Part shown: positions 123 through 51,783 of the stretch, piece after piece | How the letters are laid out: each line of letters begins with the position of its first letter | Numbering within the stretch: the stretch's first letter is position 1 | Sequence record: OR083247.1 | Strand: one strand, 5' to 3' | DNA: 64,000 nt | From: Escherichia phage Bf23 | Made by a program: the position numbers and the translations under genes | The notes under the pieces: generated by a model | The model's input: the letters and a program-made list of their open reading frames with translations, nothing else | What the model was told of the DNA's origin: nothing | Databases searched by the model: none

Positions 123-857
123 TTATGCGACTTTTAGTTTTTCAATATATTGTTGCGGGCTGCAACTATATTCTGCGCGTTCTTCCTCGGTCATACTTTC
201 CCAACATAATTGCAAGCGATCGGCTAGGAACTGATAATCATTATCATCGTCGAGCGATTCATCGATAAAGGTTTCACCTATCAATGTCACGCCGATTGAT
301 AGAATATCATTAATAGCTTGTGCGTCCAGCGTTTTAAACCCGTATGATGCCGCCGCCGATAGCACGCCCTTATGATCATCAATCATCGTGAAATCAGCGT
401 TTGGATATAGCTGTTTAAATAACTCAAAGTAATGGCTTTTATATATAGCATCTTTACTGTGGTATATTTCGCTAACTTTATCAGCCTCAAAATATTTGTG
501 TAGTGTGTCGCGGGAAAATACACGGATATTACTATCCCCACGCCCTCGCAGTCCTTGTTTGCGTAGGTAATAATAATCTGACTTACTCATCAGTCGAGCG
601 GTACAAATAATGTTTAACGTGTTAACGTCATTCATACATTGGCGCATATATGTAACAAGCGGCAATAGTGTGTCCTGCATTATTAAATCATGTTTACATG
701 CTTCATTCTTATATTTATTTAAATCTAAATTACCATCGTTATCAAAGCAAGGCGCTACGCGATGGAATGAGTTAACGATAGTGCCGTCCAGATCCCAGAT
801 CATGACGCGGGAAATATGCGGGAAATTACGGGTAATATTCGTTTTAACTTGATTCAT
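123..857 (-). CDS. dmp: 5'-deoxyribonucleotidase, HAD-like (T5 Dmp-like)
   Basis: 244-aa ORF; N-terminal HAD motif 'MIWDLDGTIVNS'; first gene of the pre-early block as in T5. Confidence 0.75.
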   Translation of the reverse strand: MNQVKTNITRNFPHISRVMIWDLDGTIVNSFHRVAPCFDNDGNLDLNKYKNEACKHDLIMQDTLLPLVTYMRQCMNDVNTLNIICTARLMSKSDYYYLRKQGLRGRGDSNIRVFSRDTLHKYFEADKVSEIYHSKDAIYKSHYFELFKQLYPNADFTMIDDHKGVLSAAASYGFKTLDAQAINDILSIGVTLIGETFIDESLDDDNDYQFLADRLQLCWESMTEEERAEYSCSPQQYIEKLKVA

Positions 858-1396: not shown

Positions 1397-3061
1397 TTAC
1401 GCAAAAAATTTACCATTCTTAAAGTCAATCAAGGTGCGCTGACCGTTTGCATAGGTAATAACATGCGTTTGTGTCCAGCTTGACGCGCCAACGTTGTAAC
1501 CCATGTCCAGACTACCAGACACGCCAGCGGTGTATACGCCGCCGTAAATACTGGCGGTATGAGTGTGCCCCGTGTTCAGTTTACCCAATTTCTTAAATTG
1601 CTTCGGATTGCCACGGCTCCCGTTAATGCCATTGTGACCGTGTACGCCGCATTCAATGCCTGCAATCTTGAAAGATTGGTCAGTCGTTAGGAAAATGGCG
1701 TTAAACTCGCAACCTGCAACCTTGCGCAACGCATAATCTAGCACGTTGAAAGTATCGTCTTTTTCTGCAATAGCTCCATAAATCGCGGCATTAAGGCGGT
1801 GATATAGTTCGGCGTTGGCTGGATCGTCTTTGATGTTAGCATTACGATCATCCAGCCAACGGGATAGCGCCAGATCGTGGTTTGATTCTACGATGATCGT
1901 TTGAGAAAAATCGCGCTCCATTGATTCCAACACGCGACCGGTATCGATAAGATCATCCAGAACTTTATCACGTCCGGCGGCGTATTGTTTTGCTAGGAAT
2001 ACACCCGAAGCGCGATTGTGATGGTTGCGTGATGTAAAATCATGCACGTCATGGACAAATTGATATTTTGGTTTAAGAATATCAAGCAAGCTATTTTCGC
2101 CAGCCCATGACGCAGCGGCGCAATCATCATCCAGTTTTTCAGCGTGGACGTCGCCATATTGTAAACCTAAAACGTGCCCCGTTGTTTCATAGCATCCGGC
2201 GGGAGTAGCGCAAACATTCAGATCGTAAAAAACGCCGCTTTCGTCCATAGTTTCAAGCTGGCGCACAAAAAACTCACCGTCCTCGTCGAACTCGACAACA
2301 AGCGCACCGAAATTATGCAACGCTTCCGCTTTCTGTCCTGCTTTCTGCTGGATGTAGTTTTTTAGCGTTGCCGTGCCGGTTGAATACATACGGCGCACTA
2401 CTTCACCTTTTAAAGCTGGGACGCTCTCGGCGGTGATTTTAGCCGCTCCAATTGCCAGACCTTCAAGGTTGAGCGCGGTTGCAGTTTCAGCAAATCCAGA
2501 AAGCGGATAATCTGCGGTAGGTAAAACGTTAATTTCAGCCATGAAAGCAAAGCGGCGATTATTCAAAAACACGTTTTTATTGCAGATATATTTGTCAAAT
2601 GCGGAATCATATTTGATTCCTTCGGCGCCCTCGCCATTTTGAAAACCGTTTTTGTTATAAATAAACTTGCTAACCAGCAAATCAGCGCCGATATATTTAG
2701 CAAATTGCTCCAGTGAGGCTAAAAAGTTTTTATGCGGGAAAGTATTATTCTGAATCGACGTAATAATAAAGCGTTTACCCTGCTTTACTTCCCAGCTTTC
2801 AACCGTGCTAGAAACAATCCCCGCCGCTTCTGGGCGCTCATCGTTTTTAATGGCTTTTGCTACTTTCGCCGCTTTCGGTTTAGCTGGTTTATTTGCTTCC
2901 AACCAATCACAAATCGCGGTCGAGTGTTTTGTAGTATCATAGACCGCCTTTGATATATCGTCGCAGACTTCCAGTTTAGTGGCGCGCAGACGTTTACCAT
3001 AGAAATTAAAGTCAGCGGCCATTTTCAGGATAACGGTTTGTTTTTCTGCGGAAATAATCAT
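1397..3061 (-). CDS. A1: A1-like pre-early protein with calcineurin-like metallophosphoesterase motifs
   Basis: 554-aa ORF; motifs 'GDVHAE', 'GHTHT', 'VESNHD'; size and position match T5 A1. Confidence 0.7.
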   Translation of the reverse strand: MIISAEKQTVILKMAADFNFYGKRLRATKLEVCDDISKAVYDTTKHSTAICDWLEANKPAKPKAAKVAKAIKNDERPEAAGIVSSTVESWEVKQGKRFIITSIQNNTFPHKNFLASLEQFAKYIGADLLVSKFIYNKNGFQNGEGAEGIKYDSAFDKYICNKNVFLNNRRFAFMAEINVLPTADYPLSGFAETATALNLEGLAIGAAKITAESVPALKGEVVRRMYSTGTATLKNYIQQKAGQKAEALHNFGALVVEFDEDGEFFVRQLETMDESGVFYDLNVCATPAGCYETTGHVLGLQYGDVHAEKLDDDCAAASWAGENSLLDILKPKYQFVHDVHDFTSRNHHNRASGVFLAKQYAAGRDKVLDDLIDTGRVLESMERDFSQTIIVESNHDLALSRWLDDRNANIKDDPANAELYHRLNAAIYGAIAEKDDTFNVLDYALRKVAGCEFNAIFLTTDQSFKIAGIECGVHGHNGINGSRGNPKQFKKLGKLNTGHTHTASIYGGVYTAGVSGSLDMGYNVGASSWTQTHVITYANGQRTLIDFKNGKFFA

Positions 3062-14825: not shown

Positions 14826-15039
14826 TCATATCACAGGACTGTTGCAATTCGTCAGCAATGCGCTTAACATCGGTTTTCGTCACTTTACCGATTAACATCA
14901 CCAGTAACATAGAAAGTATAATAAGTGGGACTGGGATAACAAATAGTGCTACCTTAGCTATATTCTTTGGTGCCCATGTGTGATACTTAGTAACTAGAAC
15001 TCCTACCACGATTAGATAAAACGCTAGAATAAACATCAT
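14797..15039 (-). CDS. small membrane protein
   Basis: 80-aa ORF with two hydrophobic segments. Confidence 0.4.
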   Translation of the reverse strand: MMFILAFYLIVVGVLVTKYHTWAPKNIAKVALFVIPVPLIILSMLLVMLIGKVTKTDVKRIADELQQSCDMIEDILKDET

Positions 15040-15317
15040 TTTTTAATCTCCGTGATTATCTGTGTACGCATTACTTTAGCAGGTAATTTATTATTCCCAA
15101 CTATTGCTTCTATATTATTTAATTTTTCCTTAAGAATATCCGAGCGTCTCTGGGCTATTTCAATATCTTGCTCTTGCTCTAGCAAGCGGTGGTGTAGCCC
15201 ATCATTAGTAATGAGCATACTTTCCATGTTTTTTCGTGCGTTTACAATCCCAATAACTCCACCAATCGCTACTAGCGTAGTAAGAACTAGTAACCCAATA
15301 AGAATTTCAATCAACAT
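15036..15317 (-). CDS. small membrane protein
   Basis: 93-aa ORF, N-terminal TM then coiled-coil. Confidence 0.4.
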   Translation of the reverse strand: MLIEILIGLLVLTTLVAIGGVIGIVNARKNMESMLITNDGLHHRLLEQEQDIEIAQRRSDILKEKLNNIEAIVGNNKLPAKVMRTQIITEIKK

Positions 15318-15480
15318 TAAATGTCCTTACATTTTTCATTGTTTGGAACTAGTTTACACATCTCCACATTTAACTCGTGGATAGAATTGTCTAGTTCTGC
15401 TAAACGTGTGTGAAGAGAAACTGTACTATAAATTAACACTCCTACAAGGAATGATAGTATTGAAATTGATACTCTTTCCA

Positions 15481-15750
15481 TTATTTCTTACCTTTCAGTT
15501 GCTTAACTTCACGCTCAAAAGATGCCGCACGACGTTCAGCAGTTGCCTGATGCTCTTTAGCAAAACGTGCTTCTTGTTTTGCAAGGTTGAACGCCATAGC
15601 ATTCTTGTTAAGAGAATCGTACATCTTTTTCATTGCCGGAATAGACATCTTCATGAGCTGTCCCTCAAAACCCTGCATATCGAGGAGAATTGCCAGAACG
15701 TTAGCCATTTCATTTTTAGTCATGTTTTCCATTATAATTTCCTCTCTCAT
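15481..15750 (-). CDS. hypothetical protein
   Basis: 89-aa ORF with RBS; early promoter immediately upstream. Confidence 0.5.
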   Translation of the reverse strand: MREEIIMENMTKNEMANVLAILLDMQGFEGQLMKMSIPAMKKMYDSLNKNAMAFNLAKQEARFAKEHQATAERRAASFEREVKQLKGKK

Positions 15751-15764
15751 TAATTTATGAACTT

Positions 15765-15793
15765 ATTATACAGAATTTTAAGGCTTAAAGCAA
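15765..15793 (-). promoter_or_regulatory. T5-type early promoter (-35 TTGCTT, 17 bp, -10 TATAAT) with conserved AT-rich leader
   Basis: hexamers read as reverse complement on the plus strand. Confidence 0.6.
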
Positions 15794-15810
15794 CTGAATT
15801 TTTTAATTAC

Positions 15811-16242
15811 TTACCAATCGTTAACAACACCAGAGAACTCAGAAGCAAAAACTTTCTCAAATTTTTCTGCAATTTCAGGATGATCTTTACAGATTAACTC
15901 AATACATGCTTCTGGAGCCATTCCTTCGTCTTCAGGATCACCATAATACTTGTCCCAAAGATCATCAGGGATGATGTGCTCTGCCAAATCTTGGAAGGAG
16001 ATTAGCTGATAACGTTCTGCTTCCTCAGGGATAAGGATTTCACAAAGATCTTTGTCTATATCACTGCGGTAATCAGCAATTAGCAAGGCATTGCAAGCAT
16101 GACACTCCCAAACCATCAAGCGTTCAGAAATAGGATTAGACTTATCCTGAACGTAGGACTGAAACAGGGTTCGGAAAGTAGCTTTAACTTGTTCAAACTT
16201 ATCTGCTGCTGCAAAAACTAGAGCTTTATCAACTTTGTTCAT
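15811..16242 (-). CDS. hypothetical acidic protein
   Basis: 143-aa ORF. Confidence 0.5.
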   Translation of the reverse strand: MNKVDKALVFAAADKFEQVKATFRTLFQSYVQDKSNPISERLMVWECHACNALLIADYRSDIDKDLCEILIPEEAERYQLISFQDLAEHIIPDDLWDKYYGDPEDEGMAPEACIELICKDHPEIAEKFEKVFASEFSGVVNDW

Positions 16243-16272
16243 TTTTATTCCTTCTCATCAATTTATAAAGTA

Positions 16273-16301
16273 ATTATACAGAAACTTAGGCATTTTAGCA
16301 A
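16273..16301 (-). promoter_or_regulatory. T5-type early promoter (-35 TTGCTA, 17 bp, -10 TATAAT)
   Basis: same cassette as other early promoters. Confidence 0.6.
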
Positions 16302-16409
16302 ATAAAACTTTTAATTAAAATGCCTAATCCTATACCGATAGCAATACAAATGATTATAAGTATTGCTATTACTTGTATTACTCGTTTAATAATAGCCTCA
16401 GCTATATAC

Positions 16410-16931
16410 TTAGACATTTAACATCCAGCTAGTTTTATCGTGGGAAGTATACCTACCACTCATGATGTCTTCCAGGCGTACTGGTGATTTTGCATACTCT
16501 ACACAAACGTTAATATAACGGTGGTCTCCCATTAACTCAAAGTGAGTATGCCCGTGTAAGTTCTTCTTGCCCCTTAACTCTTCTGGGTGTACTGGAGCAT
16601 GGGAAAGCCAAAAGTTTTTATACTTAACTAGGGATTGTACATTATCTACTACTCCTACTAAGTCTTTGAAAGATAATCCTTCTCGCTCTAAATCGTGGTT
16701 CCCCAAAACTAATGTAGTTCTAACATTACTAAAGAGTTTTTCGAACTTCTCCAAACCATTTCTAGATACAAATGCATCTCCTAAAATATAAAATACTGTA
16801 CGCTTATCTTTCATGGATGTAATAGTATCCATAATAAATTCATCATGCTCTTCCATAGTAGAGAAGATTGGTCTGAATTTAGTAATATTTGCATGTCCTA
16901 AGTGGAGATCGCTCCAAAAGCAGACTTTCAT
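16410..16931 (-). CDS. calcineurin-like metallophosphoesterase
   Basis: 173-aa ORF; motifs 'DLHLGH', 'GNHD', 'GHTH'. Confidence 0.6.
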   Translation of the reverse strand: MKVCFWSDLHLGHANITKFRPIFSTMEEHDEFIMDTITSMKDKRTVFYILGDAFVSRNGLEKFEKLFSNVRTTLVLGNHDLEREGLSFKDLVGVVDNVQSLVKYKNFWLSHAPVHPEELRGKKNLHGHTHFELMGDHRYINVCVEYAKSPVRLEDIMSGRYTSHDKTSWMLNV

Positions 16932-17806
16932 TAAAGAATCCTCTGTACACCACAGCTATCTTCTCGAAGCGTGGTAAATGTTGTGATTTTCCCAGTTTCA
17001 TCATTAACCTGCGCAATCGTCAACTGCCCGTTGAAAACACCGCCAGTATCAAGATAAACACGGTTTTTATAAAGAAGCGGGTAAGGTACTCCAGTATGTC
17101 CGTGAAACACGAAATCTACTCCTTTAACTTCTGGCACTTCTACCATGTATTTTTCTTTAAATCCTGCATAACGCTGGAAATAGGGGTGTTCCTCACCATT
17201 TTTAGACAAGTGGAAGCCTATTTCTTGGATTACATCTCGATCCCATAAGTATGGTTCCACATGGTATCCAGGATGGTCATGTGGGTCTTCCTTAGCTGCT
17301 TCTACTTGTGCAATAAGGTTATCCCATACTGGGGTTTCTACTTCGTTACCACATTCTTTGTACGTAAAAGGTACACCACCATGAACAACACCGTATTTCT
17401 TGCCACGATGCAGCACAGTCAGAAATACTGGAAGTTTTTCAGCCATGTCTTCGGCAATATTTTTAATGGTATCTGCGTCTAGCTCATTCATAGCCCACAT
17501 ACCGCCATTATACATCCAGTTAGCCCAATCTCCTACAATCATAAATTGGTCATGATTACCACGTACACTGATAAAGCGTGGATTGTATAAGAATTTAGCT
17601 AGAACCTGTAGATTCTGAGTGCCTCGGTCAATTAAATCCCCTACACATACAACGCAATCTTTCTTGCCGTTATACCCAGCTAATTTCAACGCATCTTCTA
17701 GCAAATCGTTGCATCCATGAATATCACCAACAAAGAATAAGTTAACATCATCAGGTACTACTAGTGTTTTATGCACATTAAATTCTTTTTTCATAATTAT
17801 TCCCAA
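16931..17806 (-). CDS. serine/threonine protein phosphatase (PPP family)
   Basis: 291-aa ORF; motifs 'GDIHGC', 'GDLIDRG', 'GNHD'. Confidence 0.7.
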   Translation of the reverse strand: MGIIMKKEFNVHKTLVVPDDVNLFFVGDIHGCNDLLEDALKLAGYNGKKDCVVCVGDLIDRGTQNLQVLAKFLYNPRFISVRGNHDQFMIVGDWANWMYNGGMWAMNELDADTIKNIAEDMAEKLPVFLTVLHRGKKYGVVHGGVPFTYKECGNEVETPVWDNLIAQVEAAKEDPHDHPGYHVEPYLWDRDVIQEIGFHLSKNGEEHPYFQRYAGFKEKYMVEVPEVKGVDFVFHGHTGVPYPLLYKNRVYLDTGGVFNGQLTIAQVNDETGKITTFTTLREDSCGVQRIL

Positions 17807-18042
17807 ATAACATTTAAAATAGTTGTACCATAGTTATTAGATAGTTTGAGAGTATAACCCTCTTTATAAATGGCTTTTATGGCCTCATAACTAATTTCAT
17901 CACGGTTAAACTGCACATAAGAACCCCCACATTCTACAGAAGATATAATCCGTCTTTTAACGTATCTATACGGTTTCTTTCTGCTCTTGAGAAGAGCAGC
18001 TCTATTAACCCTAGCTAAATGTTTTGCTTGCTCTGCTAACAT
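17797..18042 (-). CDS. hypothetical protein
   Basis: 81-aa ORF. Confidence 0.4.
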   Translation of the reverse strand: MLAEQAKHLARVNRAALLKSRKKPYRYVKRRIISSVECGGSYVQFNRDEISYEAIKAIYKEGYTLKLSNNYGTTILNVIWE

Positions 18043-18046
18043 TTAA

Positions 18047-18424
18047 TTATCTCCAATGGTTGGTATGTTTTTCAGCCTCTTCATCATTAGGCTCAAATAC
18101 TACGTGGCAATCTACAGCTTCCCAAAAGGCTTCACGGATTAAGGAGTTTTTAGCTGAGATATCTAACTCTTCCCATTCCTCCAAAGTCTCTAAGTCTGTA
18201 TCAACTTCGGTATCACAGCCAACCAAACCCAGAGACACAACAAGAGTAAGACGATCTTCACGTTCTTCGGGATAAACCTCAGCATATTCCCAAGCAGCTT
18301 CTTCAACATAATATTGTTGTTCCTTTTCTGGAAGTGACTTATACTTTTCTTCTGTAATACCCATCTCAACAGCGCGAGTACCACAAACTACGTTATTATT
18401 AATAATTAGATATGCATAGTTCAT
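18047..18424 (-). CDS. hypothetical acidic protein
   Basis: 125-aa Glu/Asp-rich ORF. Confidence 0.45.
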   Translation of the reverse strand: MNYAYLIINNNVVCGTRAVEMGITEEKYKSLPEKEQQYYVEEAAWEYAEVYPEEREDRLTLVVSLGLVGCDTEVDTDLETLEEWEELDISAKNSLIREAFWEAVDCHVVFEPNDEEAEKHTNHWR

Positions 18425-18481
18425 TGGAATACCCCTATTTCTTGTAGTGCGTAGATAGCCTTCTCATCAATTTATATAAGT

Positions 18482-18510
18482 ATTATACCAAAATTTTTAG
18501 CAAAAAGCAA
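18482..18510 (-). promoter_or_regulatory. T5-type early promoter (-35 TTGCTT, -10 TATAAT)
   Basis: conserved cassette. Confidence 0.6.
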
Positions 18511-18520
18511 GTAAAATAAA

Positions 18521-18548
18521 AGCCTGATCCGCTAAGATCAGGCTTGGT
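18521..18548 (-). terminator. rho-independent terminator
   Basis: hairpin AGCCTGATC...GATCAGGCT with U-run on the minus strand. Confidence 0.55.
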
Positions 18549-18551
18549 TTA

Positions 18552-18842
18552 TTAATCCTCTGGATTATCATCCAGGAAATTTTTAATAGCTTCGTGCATA
18601 GTTTCTTTACGAAGCTGACGTCCAATCAAAATATGATTAGCTTCTACTCGACCATTAGGTAAGCGATCCGCCAGAACTACTACGGGAACTTGGCGTACAC
18701 CAAATTTCTGCATTAATTCTGTATTATCAGTCTCTTTATGGATTTCCAAATTATAGTCATTGACTACTTTATCAAATACTGGCTCAAACATTTTGCAAGG
18801 ATTGCAAGTAGAACCTTTCAATAGATATACTAATTTACTCAT
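18552..18842 (-). CDS. thioredoxin-like protein
   Basis: 96-aa ORF; active-site-like 'CNPCKM' and downstream pattern resembling E. coli thioredoxin 'CGPCKM'. Confidence 0.55.
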   Translation of the reverse strand: MSKLVYLLKGSTCNPCKMFEPVFDKVVNDYNLEIHKETDNTELMQKFGVRQVPVVVLADRLPNGRVEANHILIGRQLRKETMHEAIKNFLDDNPED

Positions 18843-19266
18843 AGTTATTAATGGCCTCTAAGAAGTTTTTCATAGTTTTTACGGTTGCGGTGCTCAGATC
18901 AAGATTTACACCCAAACACTCGGTTAATGCTTCCTGATAAGGAGCCTTTAATCTGCCTTCTGGGACTTCTACCTTCTTATATTCTTTATTTTTGACCTTT
19001 TTAATCATAGTCTCTAGTACAAGAAGCGGTAATTTAGCACCTTCAATATCAGTACCCAAAAGTTCAGTTAAAATTTTATTAAGATCAAGACGAGTTAACT
19101 TTTTGCCCTTAGACATAGATGCACCTACCTTTGTATCAATAGATTTTTCCGCTTTCTTTTCGAGCTTTTTGTACTCAGGAGAGTCATGATCACGGAGTGC
19201 AATGTTTAGCTCGTAATGTGGTATACGAAAATGTTCCGCCATTTGAGTGTAGAAACGATCAGACAT
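18835..19266 (-). CDS. hypothetical protein
   Basis: 143-aa ORF. Confidence 0.45.
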   Translation of the reverse strand: MSDRFYTQMAEHFRIPHYELNIALRDHDSPEYKKLEKKAEKSIDTKVGASMSKGKKLTRLDLNKILTELLGTDIEGAKLPLLVLETMIKKVKNKEYKKVEVPEGRLKAPYQEALTECLGVNLDLSTATVKTMKNFLEAINNYE

Positions 19267-19341
19267 AATATATACCTCTCTTAACTAATTTATGTATATA
19301 TTATATAATAACTAGGGCTAAAAGTCAACTACTTTTTTATC

Positions 19342-19758
19342 TTAATCTACTGCATGTATAAATCTTTTCCTAACTAGATACATAGTTATTGGATAAATTG
19401 AGTACATAAGTATAGGGGAGAAAAGGGTGAAATACGCTGTAACTCCCCCAGCTAACATCAAAGGTATTAATGCTAGAGTAAGGGCCATAAGAATCATACC
19501 GAATGAAACAGCCAAAGCTATGGATATAGGATTCTCTAGTTCCATCCATAACCAACAATATTTCGTATCTCTATGGCAATTGCATTTACAAACGCCGAAT
19601 GAACCCATAATTATATACTCTAGTCCGTGAATAACCTTTATTAATAAGCTATTTCGGGTAGTTAATGCAATGATAGTAAAGACTATCATTAAAACGAATA
19701 CTACTAGACTTATTTTCCAGATACCTAGCAGCATCATAGTGAATAGTTCTGCAAACAT
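19342..19758 (-). CDS. membrane protein
   Basis: 138-aa ORF with 3-4 predicted TM segments. Confidence 0.45.
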   Translation of the reverse strand: MFAELFTMMLLGIWKISLVVFVLMIVFTIIALTTRNSLLIKVIHGLEYIIMGSFGVCKCNCHRDTKYCWLWMELENPISIALAVSFGMILMALTLALIPLMLAGGVTAYFTLFSPILMYSIYPITMYLVRKRFIHAVD

Positions 19759-49908: not shown

Positions 49909-51783
49909 ATGAATCGTAATGAAGAACTAAAGTATAAAGAAATGCAGGCGTTAATTAGAAACTGCAAAGAGATTATCGAAGGATCAGCAGATGAAGAGCT
50001 GCTGTTTAATAATGCCAATAAACCCTCAGAACGTTTCCCTACACAAAGGGATATGCTTGCAGGGGAATTGAGTAAATATCTGATTCTAGAAGAAATGCCA
50101 ATTCAGATTCGAAATGCTCATATGATTGGAGATATTCATTTCCATGATGCTGATTACGCTGCTTTAGGTATGACTAACTGTTGTCTAGTAGCTCTGGAAG
50201 ATATGCTAAAAAATGGTATGAAAGTTGGTAATGCTGAAATTAGTACACCAAATTCTATTACTACTGCGGCTGCTATTACAGCTCAGATTATCACACAGGT
50301 TAGCTCCCATCAGTATGGCGGTACTTCTGTAGACCGATTAGATGAAGTATTGGCTCCTTATGTTCGTAAGTCTTATGATAAGAATCATGCGTTTGCAAAA
50401 CGTTGGACTAAGGATGAAGCCAAAGCATCAGTAATGGCTACTGAGATGACTGAAAAAGAAGTCTATGATGCTTGTCAGGGTCTAGAGTATGAAATCAATA
50501 CGATGTTCAATTCTAATGGTCAGAGTCCATTTATTACCTTTGGTTTTGGTCTAGGAACTTCTTGGGAAGCACGTCTAGTACAGAAAGCAATACTGAAAGT
50601 ACGTATGGATGGCCTAGGCATCAATAAACGTACAGCTATCTTTCCGAAACTGGTGTTTGTTCTGCGTGATGGCGTAAATATGAAGCCAGGAGATGTTAAT
50701 TATGACATCAAGAAGTTAGCTATGAAATGTACTGCTGAACGTATGTATCCCGACTATATCAGCTACGATAAGGTTGTGGAAGTTACTGGTGACTATAAAG
50801 TTTCTATGGGCTGCCGTTCATTCCTGGCTGCTACAGAGGATGGTGAAACTGCCGGTCGTAATAACTTAGGTGTTGTTTCTGTAAACTTGCCTAGAATTGC
50901 TATCGAAGCTGAAGGGAATATTGATCTATTCTTTGATTTGCTTGAGCTACGTGTGGATACAGCGTTAAAAGCATTGGAGTGGAGAGTTGATCGCTTAAAA
51001 TACATTCAAGCTAAAGCTGCGCCTATCCTCTATATGTCAGGAGCCTTTGGATTACGCTTAGGGCCTGATGAATATGTATTCGATCATTTCTATAACCGTG
51101 CTTCTGTATCTCTGGGGTATATTGGTTGCCATGAAATGCTACAGTTCATGTTTGGCAAAGATGTAGATACAATGTCTGAGACCTGCATCAAGTTTGTTCA
51201 GCGTGTGCTGCAGTACATGCGGGATAGGGTCGATCAGAAGAAGGAAGAGACTAAGTTAGGTTATAGCCTGTATGCTACACCATCAGAGTCCCTATGTGAT
51301 CGCTTTTGTCGTCTAGACCGTGAATATTTCCCGGAGCATGAAGATATTCTGTCCAAAGGATACTACACTAACTCTCACCACCTTGATGTGGAACGTAAAG
51401 TTGCTCCTAACGTGAAATTTGATTATGAATCTAACTTTACTCCGATTGCTTCTGGTGGATGTATCTCTTATGTAGAACTACCAGATATGAAACGATTCCC
51501 GGATGCACTGGAATGGGTTATTAATTATGCTGCTAGTAAGGTTCATTACTTCGGTATTAATACTCCAGTGGATTCCTGTGGTAAATGTGGATTCTTAGGT
51601 GAAACAGTAGCATCCGAAGATGGATTCAAGTGCCCTATCTGTGGTAATCATGACCCTGAAACTCTTGAAGTAACTCGTCGAGTTTGTGGGTATCTTGGAA
51701 ATCCAGGTGCTCGTCCGTTTAACCCAGGAAAACAACATGAGGTTATGGGCAGGGTGAAACATCAGGATATTCGAGCTAAATAA
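49909..51783 (+). CDS. nrdD: anaerobic ribonucleoside-triphosphate reductase
   Basis: 624-aa ORF; C-terminal zinc ribbon 'CGKCGF...CPICG' and glycyl-radical motif 'RVCGYLG'. Confidence 0.8.
   Translation: MNRNEELKYKEMQALIRNCKEIIEGSADEELLFNNANKPSERFPTQRDMLAGELSKYLILEEMPIQIRNAHMIGDIHFHDADYAALGMTNCCLVALEDMLKNGMKVGNAEISTPNSITTAAAITAQIITQVSSHQYGGTSVDRLDEVLAPYVRKSYDKNHAFAKRWTKDEAKASVMATEMTEKEVYDACQGLEYEINTMFNSNGQSPFITFGFGLGTSWEARLVQKAILKVRMDGLGINKRTAIFPKLVFVLRDGVNMKPGDVNYDIKKLAMKCTAERMYPDYISYDKVVEVTGDYKVSMGCRSFLAATEDGETAGRNNLGVVSVNLPRIAIEAEGNIDLFFDLLELRVDTALKALEWRVDRLKYIQAKAAPILYMSGAFGLRLGPDEYVFDHFYNRASVSLGYIGCHEMLQFMFGKDVDTMSETCIKFVQRVLQYMRDRVDQKKEETKLGYSLYATPSESLCDRFCRLDREYFPEHEDILSKGYYTNSHHLDVERKVAPNVKFDYESNFTPIASGGCISYVELPDMKRFPDALEWVINYAASKVHYFGINTPVDSCGKCGFLGETVASEDGFKCPICGNHDPETLEVTRRVCGYLGNPGARPFNPGKQHEVMGRVKHQDIRAK

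Follow-up and report, generated by a model that had tools for sequence, protein, structure and literature searches.

Three metallophosphoesterase genes in the left 64 kb of a T5-like genome belong to three separate clades

Two adjacent genes for calcineurin-like phosphoesterases in the early region of a T5-like phage, together with a third such enzyme encoded by the pre-early gene A1, raise the question of whether the three act as one system. The stretch of DNA analysed (the window) comes from a Tequintavirus (T5-like) genome, has a DNA identity of 92-96% to many records, and is the left 64 kb of the phage. A first-pass annotation had counted three such enzymes in it and took them to suggest that host phosphorylation or nucleotide signalling is manipulated in layers. 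All window ORFs of at least 60 aa (n=192) were scanned for the combined GNH[DE], DxH and GHxH pattern, and only 3 of the 192 carried it: the adjacent pair (ORF1 and ORF2) and A1. All three belong to the metallophosphoesterase superfamily, which upheld the count. A fourth ORF with a GNHD motif (49909-51783) is NrdD and not a metallophosphoesterase. The adjacent pair is present on the minus strand where it had been placed, with metallophosphoesterase motifs in both members. Metal-ligand residues, whose loss on alignment had been named as a possible refutation, were found to be kept; they are invariant in the homologues of ORF1 and A1, and those of ORF2 align with lambda NinI. The three genes are T5.034, T5.035 and A1, whose annotation in T5 is long-standing and dates back to the publication of the T5 genome. 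They are already known biology and carry little weight as a discovery; the useful yield of the analysis lies in corrections.

ORF1 (16410..16931, minus strand) is the orthologue of T5.034 (97% identical), which is annotated 'phosphoesterase', and encodes a compact binuclear metallophosphoesterase of 173 aa. It matched Pfam Metallophos PF00149 at 29 bits (gathering score 21.5), which places it in the superfamily, and PHROG 547 'phosphoesterase' at 1.7e-54. In an alignment of 60 homologues with identity down to 37%, the motifs D8-x-H10, G51-D52, G77-N78-H79-D80, H111 and G127-H128-x-H130 were invariant, as were four family-specific residues (H13, P113, H115, and Y139). Superfamily members were the top fold matches of its AlphaFold2 model (pLDDT 96). 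A Foldseek search of the PDB returned Aq1665 of Aquifex aeolicus (1xm7; E 1.4e-9, TMq 0.71) and the P. putida ssDNA nuclease MPE (6nvo; 4.2e-5), followed by Mre11 and LpxH, and the cyclic-nucleotide phosphodiesterase Rv0805 was found among the distant fold neighbours. ORF1 shares the minimal single-domain fold and the five motifs with Aq1665 and P. putida MPE/PdeM, but differs from them in an invariant SHAPxHPxELRG segment which is specific to its own family. Judged by its predicted fold, ORF1 is best placed as a minimal metallophosphoesterase of the Aq1665/nuclease-MPE-like phosphodiesterase type. Its closest structures are nucleases and phosphodiesterases, not protein phosphatases, and its substrate would most likely be a nucleic acid or a nucleotide, cleaved at a phosphodiester bond.

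More specific names for ORF1 did not hold. PdeM was its best NCBIfam match, although a weak one, and the model for the PdeM endonuclease of the ligase-associated DNA damage response (TIGR04123) gave 36.4 bits against a cut-off of 150. Neither a ligase nor an Lhr helicase of the PdeM repair cluster was found beside the gene, which lies among uncharacterised small ORFs and next to the gene of the NinI-like phosphatase. In several GenBank records the protein is labelled a Ser/Thr phosphatase. Its motif II reads LGDAFVS without DRG, and this label is unsupported because the arginine of GDxxDRG is missing. No PPP structure was among the top fold matches, and BLASTP between ORF1 and ORF2 gave a best E of 2.3. 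The Ser/Thr phosphatase label should therefore be dropped for ORF1.

ORF2 (16931..17794, minus strand) is the orthologue of T5.035 (~95% identical), which is annotated 'NinI-like Ser/Thr phosphatase', and encodes a lambda-phosphatase (NinI)-like member of the PPP family. It had been given as 16931-17806. The ORF is real, but its start has to be moved to the ATG at 17794, since the TTG at 17806 is only that of the mechanical longest ORF. The TAA stop of the upstream gene lies 2 nt ahead of this ATG, and a CDS of 864 nt is annotated at the ORF2 site in both T5 and oldekolle. With this start the protein has 287 aa, not 291. The PPP-family signature ascribed to it was borne out, with GDIHG, GDLIDRG, and GNHD all present. 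Matches to Pfam Metallophos (61.8 bits, gathering score 21.5) and to PHROG 246 'NinI-like' (4.8e-93) confirmed its superfamily and family, and lambda phosphatase (1g5b) was by far the best match at E 2.5e-34. The catalytic residues of lambda NinI aligned to D24, H26, D53, R57, N80, H81, H138, R186, and H233 of ORF2. With these signatures, two phosphate-binding arginines (R57 and R186) and the catalytic histidine (H81), ORF2 falls within the lambda-PP/PrpA/PrpB clade of the PPP family.

The likeness of ORF2 to lambda-PP (NinI, 1g5b) and E. coli PrpA and PrpB amounts to 39% identity over the aligned core and takes in GDxHG, GDxxDRG, GNH[DE], the metal ligands, both arginines and the histidine. 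However, lambda-PP has 221 aa whereas ORF2 has ~65 extra residues, found in insertions of ~25 and ~21 aa which flank the WxR motif and in a C-terminal tail of 19 aa. The setting also differs: the T5-like phage is virulent and ORF2 is part of an early operon, whereas the lambda-PP gene lies in the nin region of a temperate phage. ORF2 is best placed as a lambda-phosphatase-type, Mn2+-dependent phosphomonoesterase with the full PPP catalytic set, and early in infection it would most likely dephosphorylate proteins of the host or the phage that carry phosphate on Ser, Thr, Tyr or His. The cut-offs of the PrpA/PrpB equivalog models were missed (NF008516, 97.7 vs 326 bits; NF007425, 81.4 vs 332 bits), as were those for ApaH, whose models matched the N-terminal half only (NF001204, 58 vs 176 bits; TIGR00668, 34.8 vs 222.85 bits). 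Among the sub-threshold NCBIfam matches were these ApaH models and bacterial Pnkp (TIGR04075, 6.6e-10). The lambda-PP clade also takes in ApaH, an Np4N hydrolase, and the phosphatase domain of Pnkp. Because of this clade membership and the sub-threshold matches to both, 'protein phosphatase' is to be taken as the default reading of the ORF2 sequence only. A search of the literature turned up no biochemical results on T5.035.

The two genes lie in one transcription unit on the minus strand. The stop of ORF2 and the start of ORF1 overlap as TAATG at 16931. Upstream of ORF2 and within the same unit are a DUF7167 protein (18047-18424, minus strand; 125 aa, 27.6 bits) and the T5.036 orthologue (17797-18042, minus strand; 81 aa), in the same gene order as oldekolle gp118 and gp117. 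A probable early promoter was read at 18476..18511 (minus strand), with TTGCTT, a 17 nt spacer and TGgTATAAT. It was missed by the consensus scan because its -35 matches 3/6 positions only. T5 has an annotated promoter in the corresponding place ahead of T5.036, and the element at 18476..18511 probably drives the ORF2/ORF1 unit. It sits just downstream of a terminator-like hairpin (18520..18545, minus strand; 11-bp stem, then a T-run) which ends the upstream thioredoxin unit, and a rho-independent terminator is annotated at the equivalent site in T5. The last gene of the ORF2/ORF1 unit is a hydrophobic ORF of 40 aa (16295..16417, minus strand; oldekolle gp114) which shares 8 nt with the end of ORF1. 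The unit that follows has a sigma-70-like promoter at 16301-16273. An Rfam scan of 15000-19500 returned no RNA family.

The third gene, A1 (1397..3061, minus strand), encodes a protein of 554 aa in which a helical N-terminal region is followed by a beta-rich middle domain and, over residues ~296-554 (window 1400-2176, minus strand), by a C-terminal metallophosphoesterase domain. It is a member of the T5 A1 family (PHROG 1745, 1.8e-243 over residues 8-553), has 95% identity to proteins named A1, and is placed in the pre-early block beside dmp, a dmp-like ORF being found at 123-857. Searches of Pfam and NCBIfam, and phmmer and profile searches of the PDB, gave no meaningful match; therefore the earlier call of the same motif class in A1 was not to be taken for granted. 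The single PDB profile match, a dehydroquinase (E 0.003), arose by chance over the SNHD region. The call was nevertheless sustained. In an alignment of 55 homologues with identity down to 41%, D304/H306, H337-D338, S393-N394-H395-D396, H474, and H499/H501 were invariant, and in the AlphaFold2 model (pLDDT 90.6) a predicted beta-strand precedes each motif. Foldseek against BFVD, a library of viral models, gave matches to proteins named as metallophosphoesterases (E 1.8e-8 to 4.4e-5). Against the PDB nothing was significant for full-length A1 (best E 0.12), and metallophosphoesterases were the top-ranked entries; significance for the A1 fold was reached only with the viral model library. In hhalign the A1 family matched the actinophage Bxb1 gp47 family with a probability of 78.7% (E 1.7e-5, 183 columns); most of the listed members of the gp47 family are PF00149-positive. 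By its ordered, conserved metal-ligand motifs and its fold, A1 is thus a superfamily member, and its C-terminal part is predicted to be a binuclear metallophosphoesterase domain of the kind seen in actinophage gp47.

Published work already describes A1 as a putative metallophosphatase which drives the breakdown of host DNA. A1 alone was reported to be necessary and sufficient for degradation of the host chromosome (bioRxiv 10.64898/2026.04.02.716235), and for this reason it is regarded as a DNA-degradation factor rather than a signalling enzyme. Most likely A1 would itself act as a metal-dependent DNase and in this way destroy the chromosome of the host.

Beyond the BLASTP result for ORF1 and ORF2, family-level comparisons gave little to join the three proteins. 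In hhalign the A1 and ORF1 families matched with a probability of 21% over 32 columns, limited to single superfamily motifs, and the ORF1 and gp47 families with one of 5%, again in superfamily motifs only. HMM-versus-sequence cross-searches among the three families gave 9-14 bits in each direction, with no discrimination. The three proteins are not paralogues but belong to three separate clades, namely Aq1665/nuclease-MPE-like (ORF1), lambda-PP/PPP (ORF2), and gp47-like (A1). Their temporal classes also differ, A1 being pre-early and T5.034 and T5.035 early. In a CRISPRi-ART screen of T5, the knock-downs of T5.034 and T5.035 were 'Not Fit' (no fitness effect), while A1 and A2 were top-fit (PMC11879866, supplementary file 16). 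The dispensability on knock-down and the in vivo DNA degradation by A1 rest on the literature; the identities of the genes, the integrity of their motifs, the assignment to folds and clades and the layout of the operon come from the analysis itself.

The pair itself is also separable. A NinI-like gene without an adjacent phosphoesterase was found at the same site in Sugarlandvirus and in Vibrio T5-like phages, and the ORF1 type is carried by many Staphylococcus, Acinetobacter, and Bacillus phages. On balance, it is rather probable that these are three independent enzymes with only an ancient fold in common, ORF1 and ORF2 being dispensable accessory neighbours and not an obligate two-component system. 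ORF1 is translationally coupled to ORF2, and the two may be neighbours by chance in Tequintavirus-type genomes. Counting against independence, the TAATG coupling and the adjacency of ORF1 and ORF2, which is conserved across Tequintavirus, would also suit a functional partnership.

One such partnership would be the processing of nucleic-acid ends, in which ORF2 and ORF1 jointly repair or trim RNA or DNA at breaks, such as those in nicked DNA of the phage itself or in tRNAs cut by host anticodon nucleases. ORF2 would here be a Pnkp-like 2',3'-cyclic phosphodiesterase/3'-phosphatase or an ApaH-like Np4N hydrolase, and ORF1 the nuclease. In vitro, lambda-PP can act as a 2',3'-cyclic phosphodiesterase, and the sub-threshold matches of ORF2 to Pnkp and ApaH models point the same way, as do those to RNA-ligase-fused phosphatases (phrog_8238, 8.4e-12) and the presence of ApaH among its PDB matches (1.3e-9). 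ORF1 resembles Mre11 and the repair-cluster nucleases PdeM/MPE, and in an Acinetobacter T4-like phage an ORF1 homologue lies between gp47 and gp46 (SbcD/SbcC), inside the recombination nuclease operon. However, no ligase or kinase partner was found in the ORF2/ORF1 operon, the family matches of this kind are far under the curated cut-offs with lambda-PP by far the best, and the genes are dispensable on the laboratory host. Joint end-processing is considered unlikely.

A role of ORF1, ORF2 or both as host-range (counter-defence) accessories appears equally doubtful. The phosphatase would undo the work of a defence or stress kinase, while the small phosphodiesterase would break down a nucleotide used in immune signalling, or would silence defence genes through damage to host DNA, which has been reported for a mycobacteriophage metallophosphoesterase. 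On K-12-type hosts neither gene is required, although both are conserved in hundreds of T5-like genomes. Moreover, there are two ORF1 alleles, only ~52% identical, which are exchanged among closely related phages, as is typical of loci in an arms race. A precedent is mycobacteriophage Gp48, a metallophosphoesterase reported to be counter-defensive (PMC12287305), but ORF1 was rejected as kin of this Gp48/gp47 counter-defence enzyme, since its family shows no specific kinship to that of gp47 (the 5% in hhalign). PADLOC models gave no anti-defence or defence family matches. In the literature, no experimental link of T5.034, T5.035 or phage NinI-like phosphatases to defence or anti-defence was found, and neither HIDEN-SEQ nor a preprint on transposon mutagenesis had relevant data. 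A narrower proposal, that T5.034 and T5.035 jointly form a conditionally required counter-defence cassette, is a little less probable still. If true, the lambda-PP-like enzyme would strip off the phosphates added by a defence or stress kinase of the host, and the coupled mini-phosphodiesterase would break down an immune nucleotide or an RNA/DNA intermediate. Such a cassette would explain the dispensability in K-12, the retention in hundreds of T5-like phages and the swapping of ORF1 alleles.

The layered programme originally proposed, in which all three enzymes would in concert rewire host protein phosphorylation or degrade nucleotide second messengers, can draw on the intact active sites of all three, on the co-transcription and translational coupling of ORF1 and ORF2 and on the place of Rv0805 among the distant fold neighbours of ORF1, but it is very improbable and was not supported, given three unrelated clades, an A1 that is essential, of another temporal class and tied to DNA degradation, an ORF1/ORF2 pair that is 'Not Fit' and occurs apart in related phages, and the absence of PADLOC or other defence-related family matches for all three. 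The three enzymes should be read apart and not as one system.

For A1 taken on its own, a possible kinship with the host-DNA-damaging actinophage gp47/Gp48 enzymes offers a modest lead. Its C-terminal domain is colinear with the Bxb1 gp47 family over motifs II to V and the C-terminus, and by fold it matches a Streptomyces phage metallophosphoesterase. Destruction of host DNA has been reported for both A1 and the Gp48 of A10ZJ24. Homology of A1 to the gp47 family is moderately probable and not proven. The two differ in that A1 has ~295 extra N-terminal residues, HD instead of GD in motif II and SNHD as motif III, whereas motif I of the gp47 family is D-x-Q. Pfam PF00149 detects many members of the gp47 family but not A1, and Bxb1 gp47 itself is sub-threshold.

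A 1.9-kb query taken around ORF1 and ORF2 matched 438 phage records. The top matches, both Tequintavirus members of the Demerecviridae, were Escherichia phage ESCO40 (96.3%) and Salmonella phage oldekolle (95.4%). Phage T5 has the same gene content and order as the window, and its record (NC_005859) lists the orthologues of ORF1 and ORF2 as T5.034 "phosphoesterase" and T5.035 "NinI-like serine-threonine phosphatase", respectively. When the 192 ORFs of 60 aa or longer were scanned, the combined metallophosphoesterase motif pattern was found only in ORF1, ORF2, and the pre-early gene A1 (1397–3061, minus strand), which is located in the block at the left end of the window. A fourth ORF bearing GNHD was rejected because it is NrdD. 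The first-pass annotation was correct in reporting three calcineurin-like phosphoesterases, and the observation is more than chance. The three are known, annotated T5 genes.

The start of ORF2 had been placed at a TTG at 17806, but this is merely the longest mechanical ORF start. An ATG at 17794 begins 2 nt after the TAA of the upstream gene, and the counterpart is annotated as an 864-nt CDS in both T5 and oldekolle; therefore the ORF2 protein is 287 aa. The PPP-family signature proposed for it is real (GDIHG, GDLIDRG, and GNHD). ORF2 was matched by the λ phosphatase structure 1g5b (E 2.5e-34) and by PHROG 246 "NinI-like" (4.8e-93). In an alignment with λ NinI taken from NC_001416, residues D24, H26, D53, R57, N80, H81, H138, R186, and H233 are kept, and these align with the metal ligands, both phosphate-binding arginines, and the catalytic histidine of the λ enzyme. 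ORF2 is a member of the λ phosphatase clade. Two insertions, of ~25 and ~21 aa, flank the WxR motif and set ORF2 apart from the λ enzyme, as does a tail of 19 residues. Assignment as a PrpA, PrpB, or ApaH equivalog was ruled out by the NCBIfam cut-offs.

ORF1 (16410–16931, minus strand) encodes 173 aa with 97% identity to T5.034. Pfam Metallophos scored 29 bits on it, above the gathering score of 21.5, and PHROG 547 matched at 1.7e-54. In 60 homologues, down to 37% identity, D8, H10, G51-D52, G77-N78-H79-D80, H111, H128, and H130 are invariant and coincide exactly with the metallophosphoesterase ligands; H13, P113, H115, and Y139 are further, family-specific invariants. The fold closest to the predicted structure (pLDDT 96) is that of Aquifex Aq1665 (1xm7; E 1.4e-9, TMq 0.71), followed by MPE (6nvo; 4.2e-5), a Pseudomonas putida ssDNA endonuclease, and then by Mre11 proteins and LpxH. 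PdeM, the family to which MPE belongs, was also the top NCBIfam match, at 36 bits, far under the 150-bit cut-off. Unlike PPP enzymes, ORF1 is without the DRG arginine, and the Ser/Thr phosphatase labels that it carries in GenBank are therefore unsupported. By resemblance, ORF1 would be an enzyme of phosphodiesterase or nuclease type. Genes of this type occur widely among phages of Staphylococcus, Acinetobacter, Bacillus, and Vibrio. In the T4-like Acinetobacter phage Konradin, a 40%-identical homologue (L004, 3492–4103) lies between the recombination nuclease genes gp47 (SbcD-like) and gp46 (SbcC-like), a placement which hints weakly at a DNA-related function.

A1, which encodes 554 aa, was the least secure of the three calls, because searches of Pfam, NCBIfam, and the PDB (phmmer and profile) gave nothing useful. 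Three independent tests, a deep alignment, a modelled fold, and a profile-profile comparison, nevertheless place it in the metallophosphatase motif class. Across 55 homologues with identities as low as 41%, D304/H306, H337-D338, S393-N394-H395-D396, H474, and H499/H501 are invariant, and in the AlphaFold2 model (pLDDT 90.6) every motif comes after a β-strand. Foldseek gave no significant match in the PDB (best E 0.12). Among viral models it retrieved named metallophosphoesterases (E 1.8e-8 to 4.4e-5), one of them a Streptomyces phage enzyme of 254 aa (E 9.9e-7). Moreover, the A1 family profile aligned with that of the actinophage Bxb1 gp47 family over 183 columns (hhalign probability 78.7%, E 1.7e-5). 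The alignment of the catalytic domain (residues ~296–554; 1400–2176, minus strand) is colinear through motifs II to V, a GASSW/GxGNW segment, and the C-terminal GKF.

A1 has already been named a "predicted metallo-phosphatase" in the literature. A 2026 preprint shows it to be essential, conserved throughout Demerecviridae, and both necessary and sufficient for the degradation of chromosomal DNA in vivo (bioRxiv 10.64898/2026.04.02.716235). For A10ZJ24 Gp48, a member of the gp47-type family, both a phosphodiesterase activity and disruption of the host's genomic DNA have been reported (PMC12287305), the latter paralleling the role of A1. These likenesses hint that A1 and the actinophage enzymes belong to one family of phage nucleases directed against the host genome, and the profile and fold match between them is a by-product worth follow-up. 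Separately, metagenomic A1 homologues of ~45% identity (P0188, P0190, P0198, P0203, and P0204) have helix-turn-helix Pfam matches (PF13384, PF04218, and PF02796), suggesting that the N-terminal helical region (residues 1–60 in the model) may be a DNA-binding module.

ORF1 and ORF2 were rejected as paralogues (BLASTP E 2.3), and family profile comparisons among ORF1, ORF2, and A1 made contact at single motifs only. The ORF1–ORF2 adjacency is kept in Tequintavirus-type genomes without being obligatory. HildyBeyeler has a 95-aa ORF between the NinI-like gene and a small phosphoesterase of 196 aa (L007, 2501–3091) that is only ~52% identical to ORF1. In the more distant T5-like phages Uniso31 (Klebsiella Sugarlandvirus, L009) and D30 (Vibrio, L010), the NinI-like gene is retained at a syntenic site downstream of the thioredoxin gene, with no small phosphoesterase adjoining it. 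Two alleles of the small phosphoesterase, >93% and ~52% identical to the window copy, occur among T5-like phages and are distributed as a mosaic over genomes that are otherwise close.

In a T5 CRISPRi-ART screen, A1 and A2 were among the top-fit genes and T5.034 and T5.035 were scored "Not Fit" (PMC11879866, supplementary file 16); this makes the latter two dispensable on the laboratory host. The literature searched held no biochemistry or phenotype for either. On balance we favour, with rather better than even confidence, three independent jobs. A1 would be a metallonuclease degrading host DNA, T5.035 a λ-type phosphomonoesterase, probably acting on phosphoproteins, and T5.034 a small enzyme that cleaves phosphodiesters, with T5.035 and T5.034 as accessory genes. 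T5.034 and T5.035 could instead form an RNA/DNA end-healing pair or a counter-defence cassette, but the positive support for either extends no further than sub-threshold family hits. Layered manipulation of host phosphorylation or nucleotide signalling, as first proposed, draws on no more than such hits and is not upheld, since the three genes represent three separate clades within a very large superfamily and differ in timing and importance.

The pre-early block also holds a fourth phosphohydrolase, dmp (123–857, minus strand; phrog_415, 3.8e-56), the T5 5'-deoxyribonucleotidase, which has no Pfam match and belongs to a different superfamily from the other three. Recent preprints describe defences sensing m6dAMP set free when host DNA is degraded, and as a dNMP phosphatase dmp could be relevant to immune evasion.

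Around ORF1 and ORF2 (15000–19500), Rfam returned no family. A terminator-like hairpin (18545–18520, minus strand) ends the thioredoxin unit and is followed on the same strand by a promoter-like site read from the sequence (TTGCTT-17-TGgTATAAT); the equivalent position in T5 bears an annotated promoter. Downstream are five tightly packed genes. The first encodes a 125-aa acidic protein (18047–18424, minus strand; DUF7167, 27.6 bits) and is present in oldekolle and absent from the same site in T5. The second is the 81-aa T5.036 orthologue (17797–18042, minus strand), which carries the RefSeq label "major head protein" in several records. The label looks to have been transferred in error from a PHROG name, as the ORF is only 81 aa, lies in the early region, and has no Pfam match. 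ORF2 and ORF1 follow, the stop of the former overlapping the start of the latter in TAATG, and ORF1 in turn overlaps the last gene, a 40-aa hydrophobic ORF, by 8 nt.
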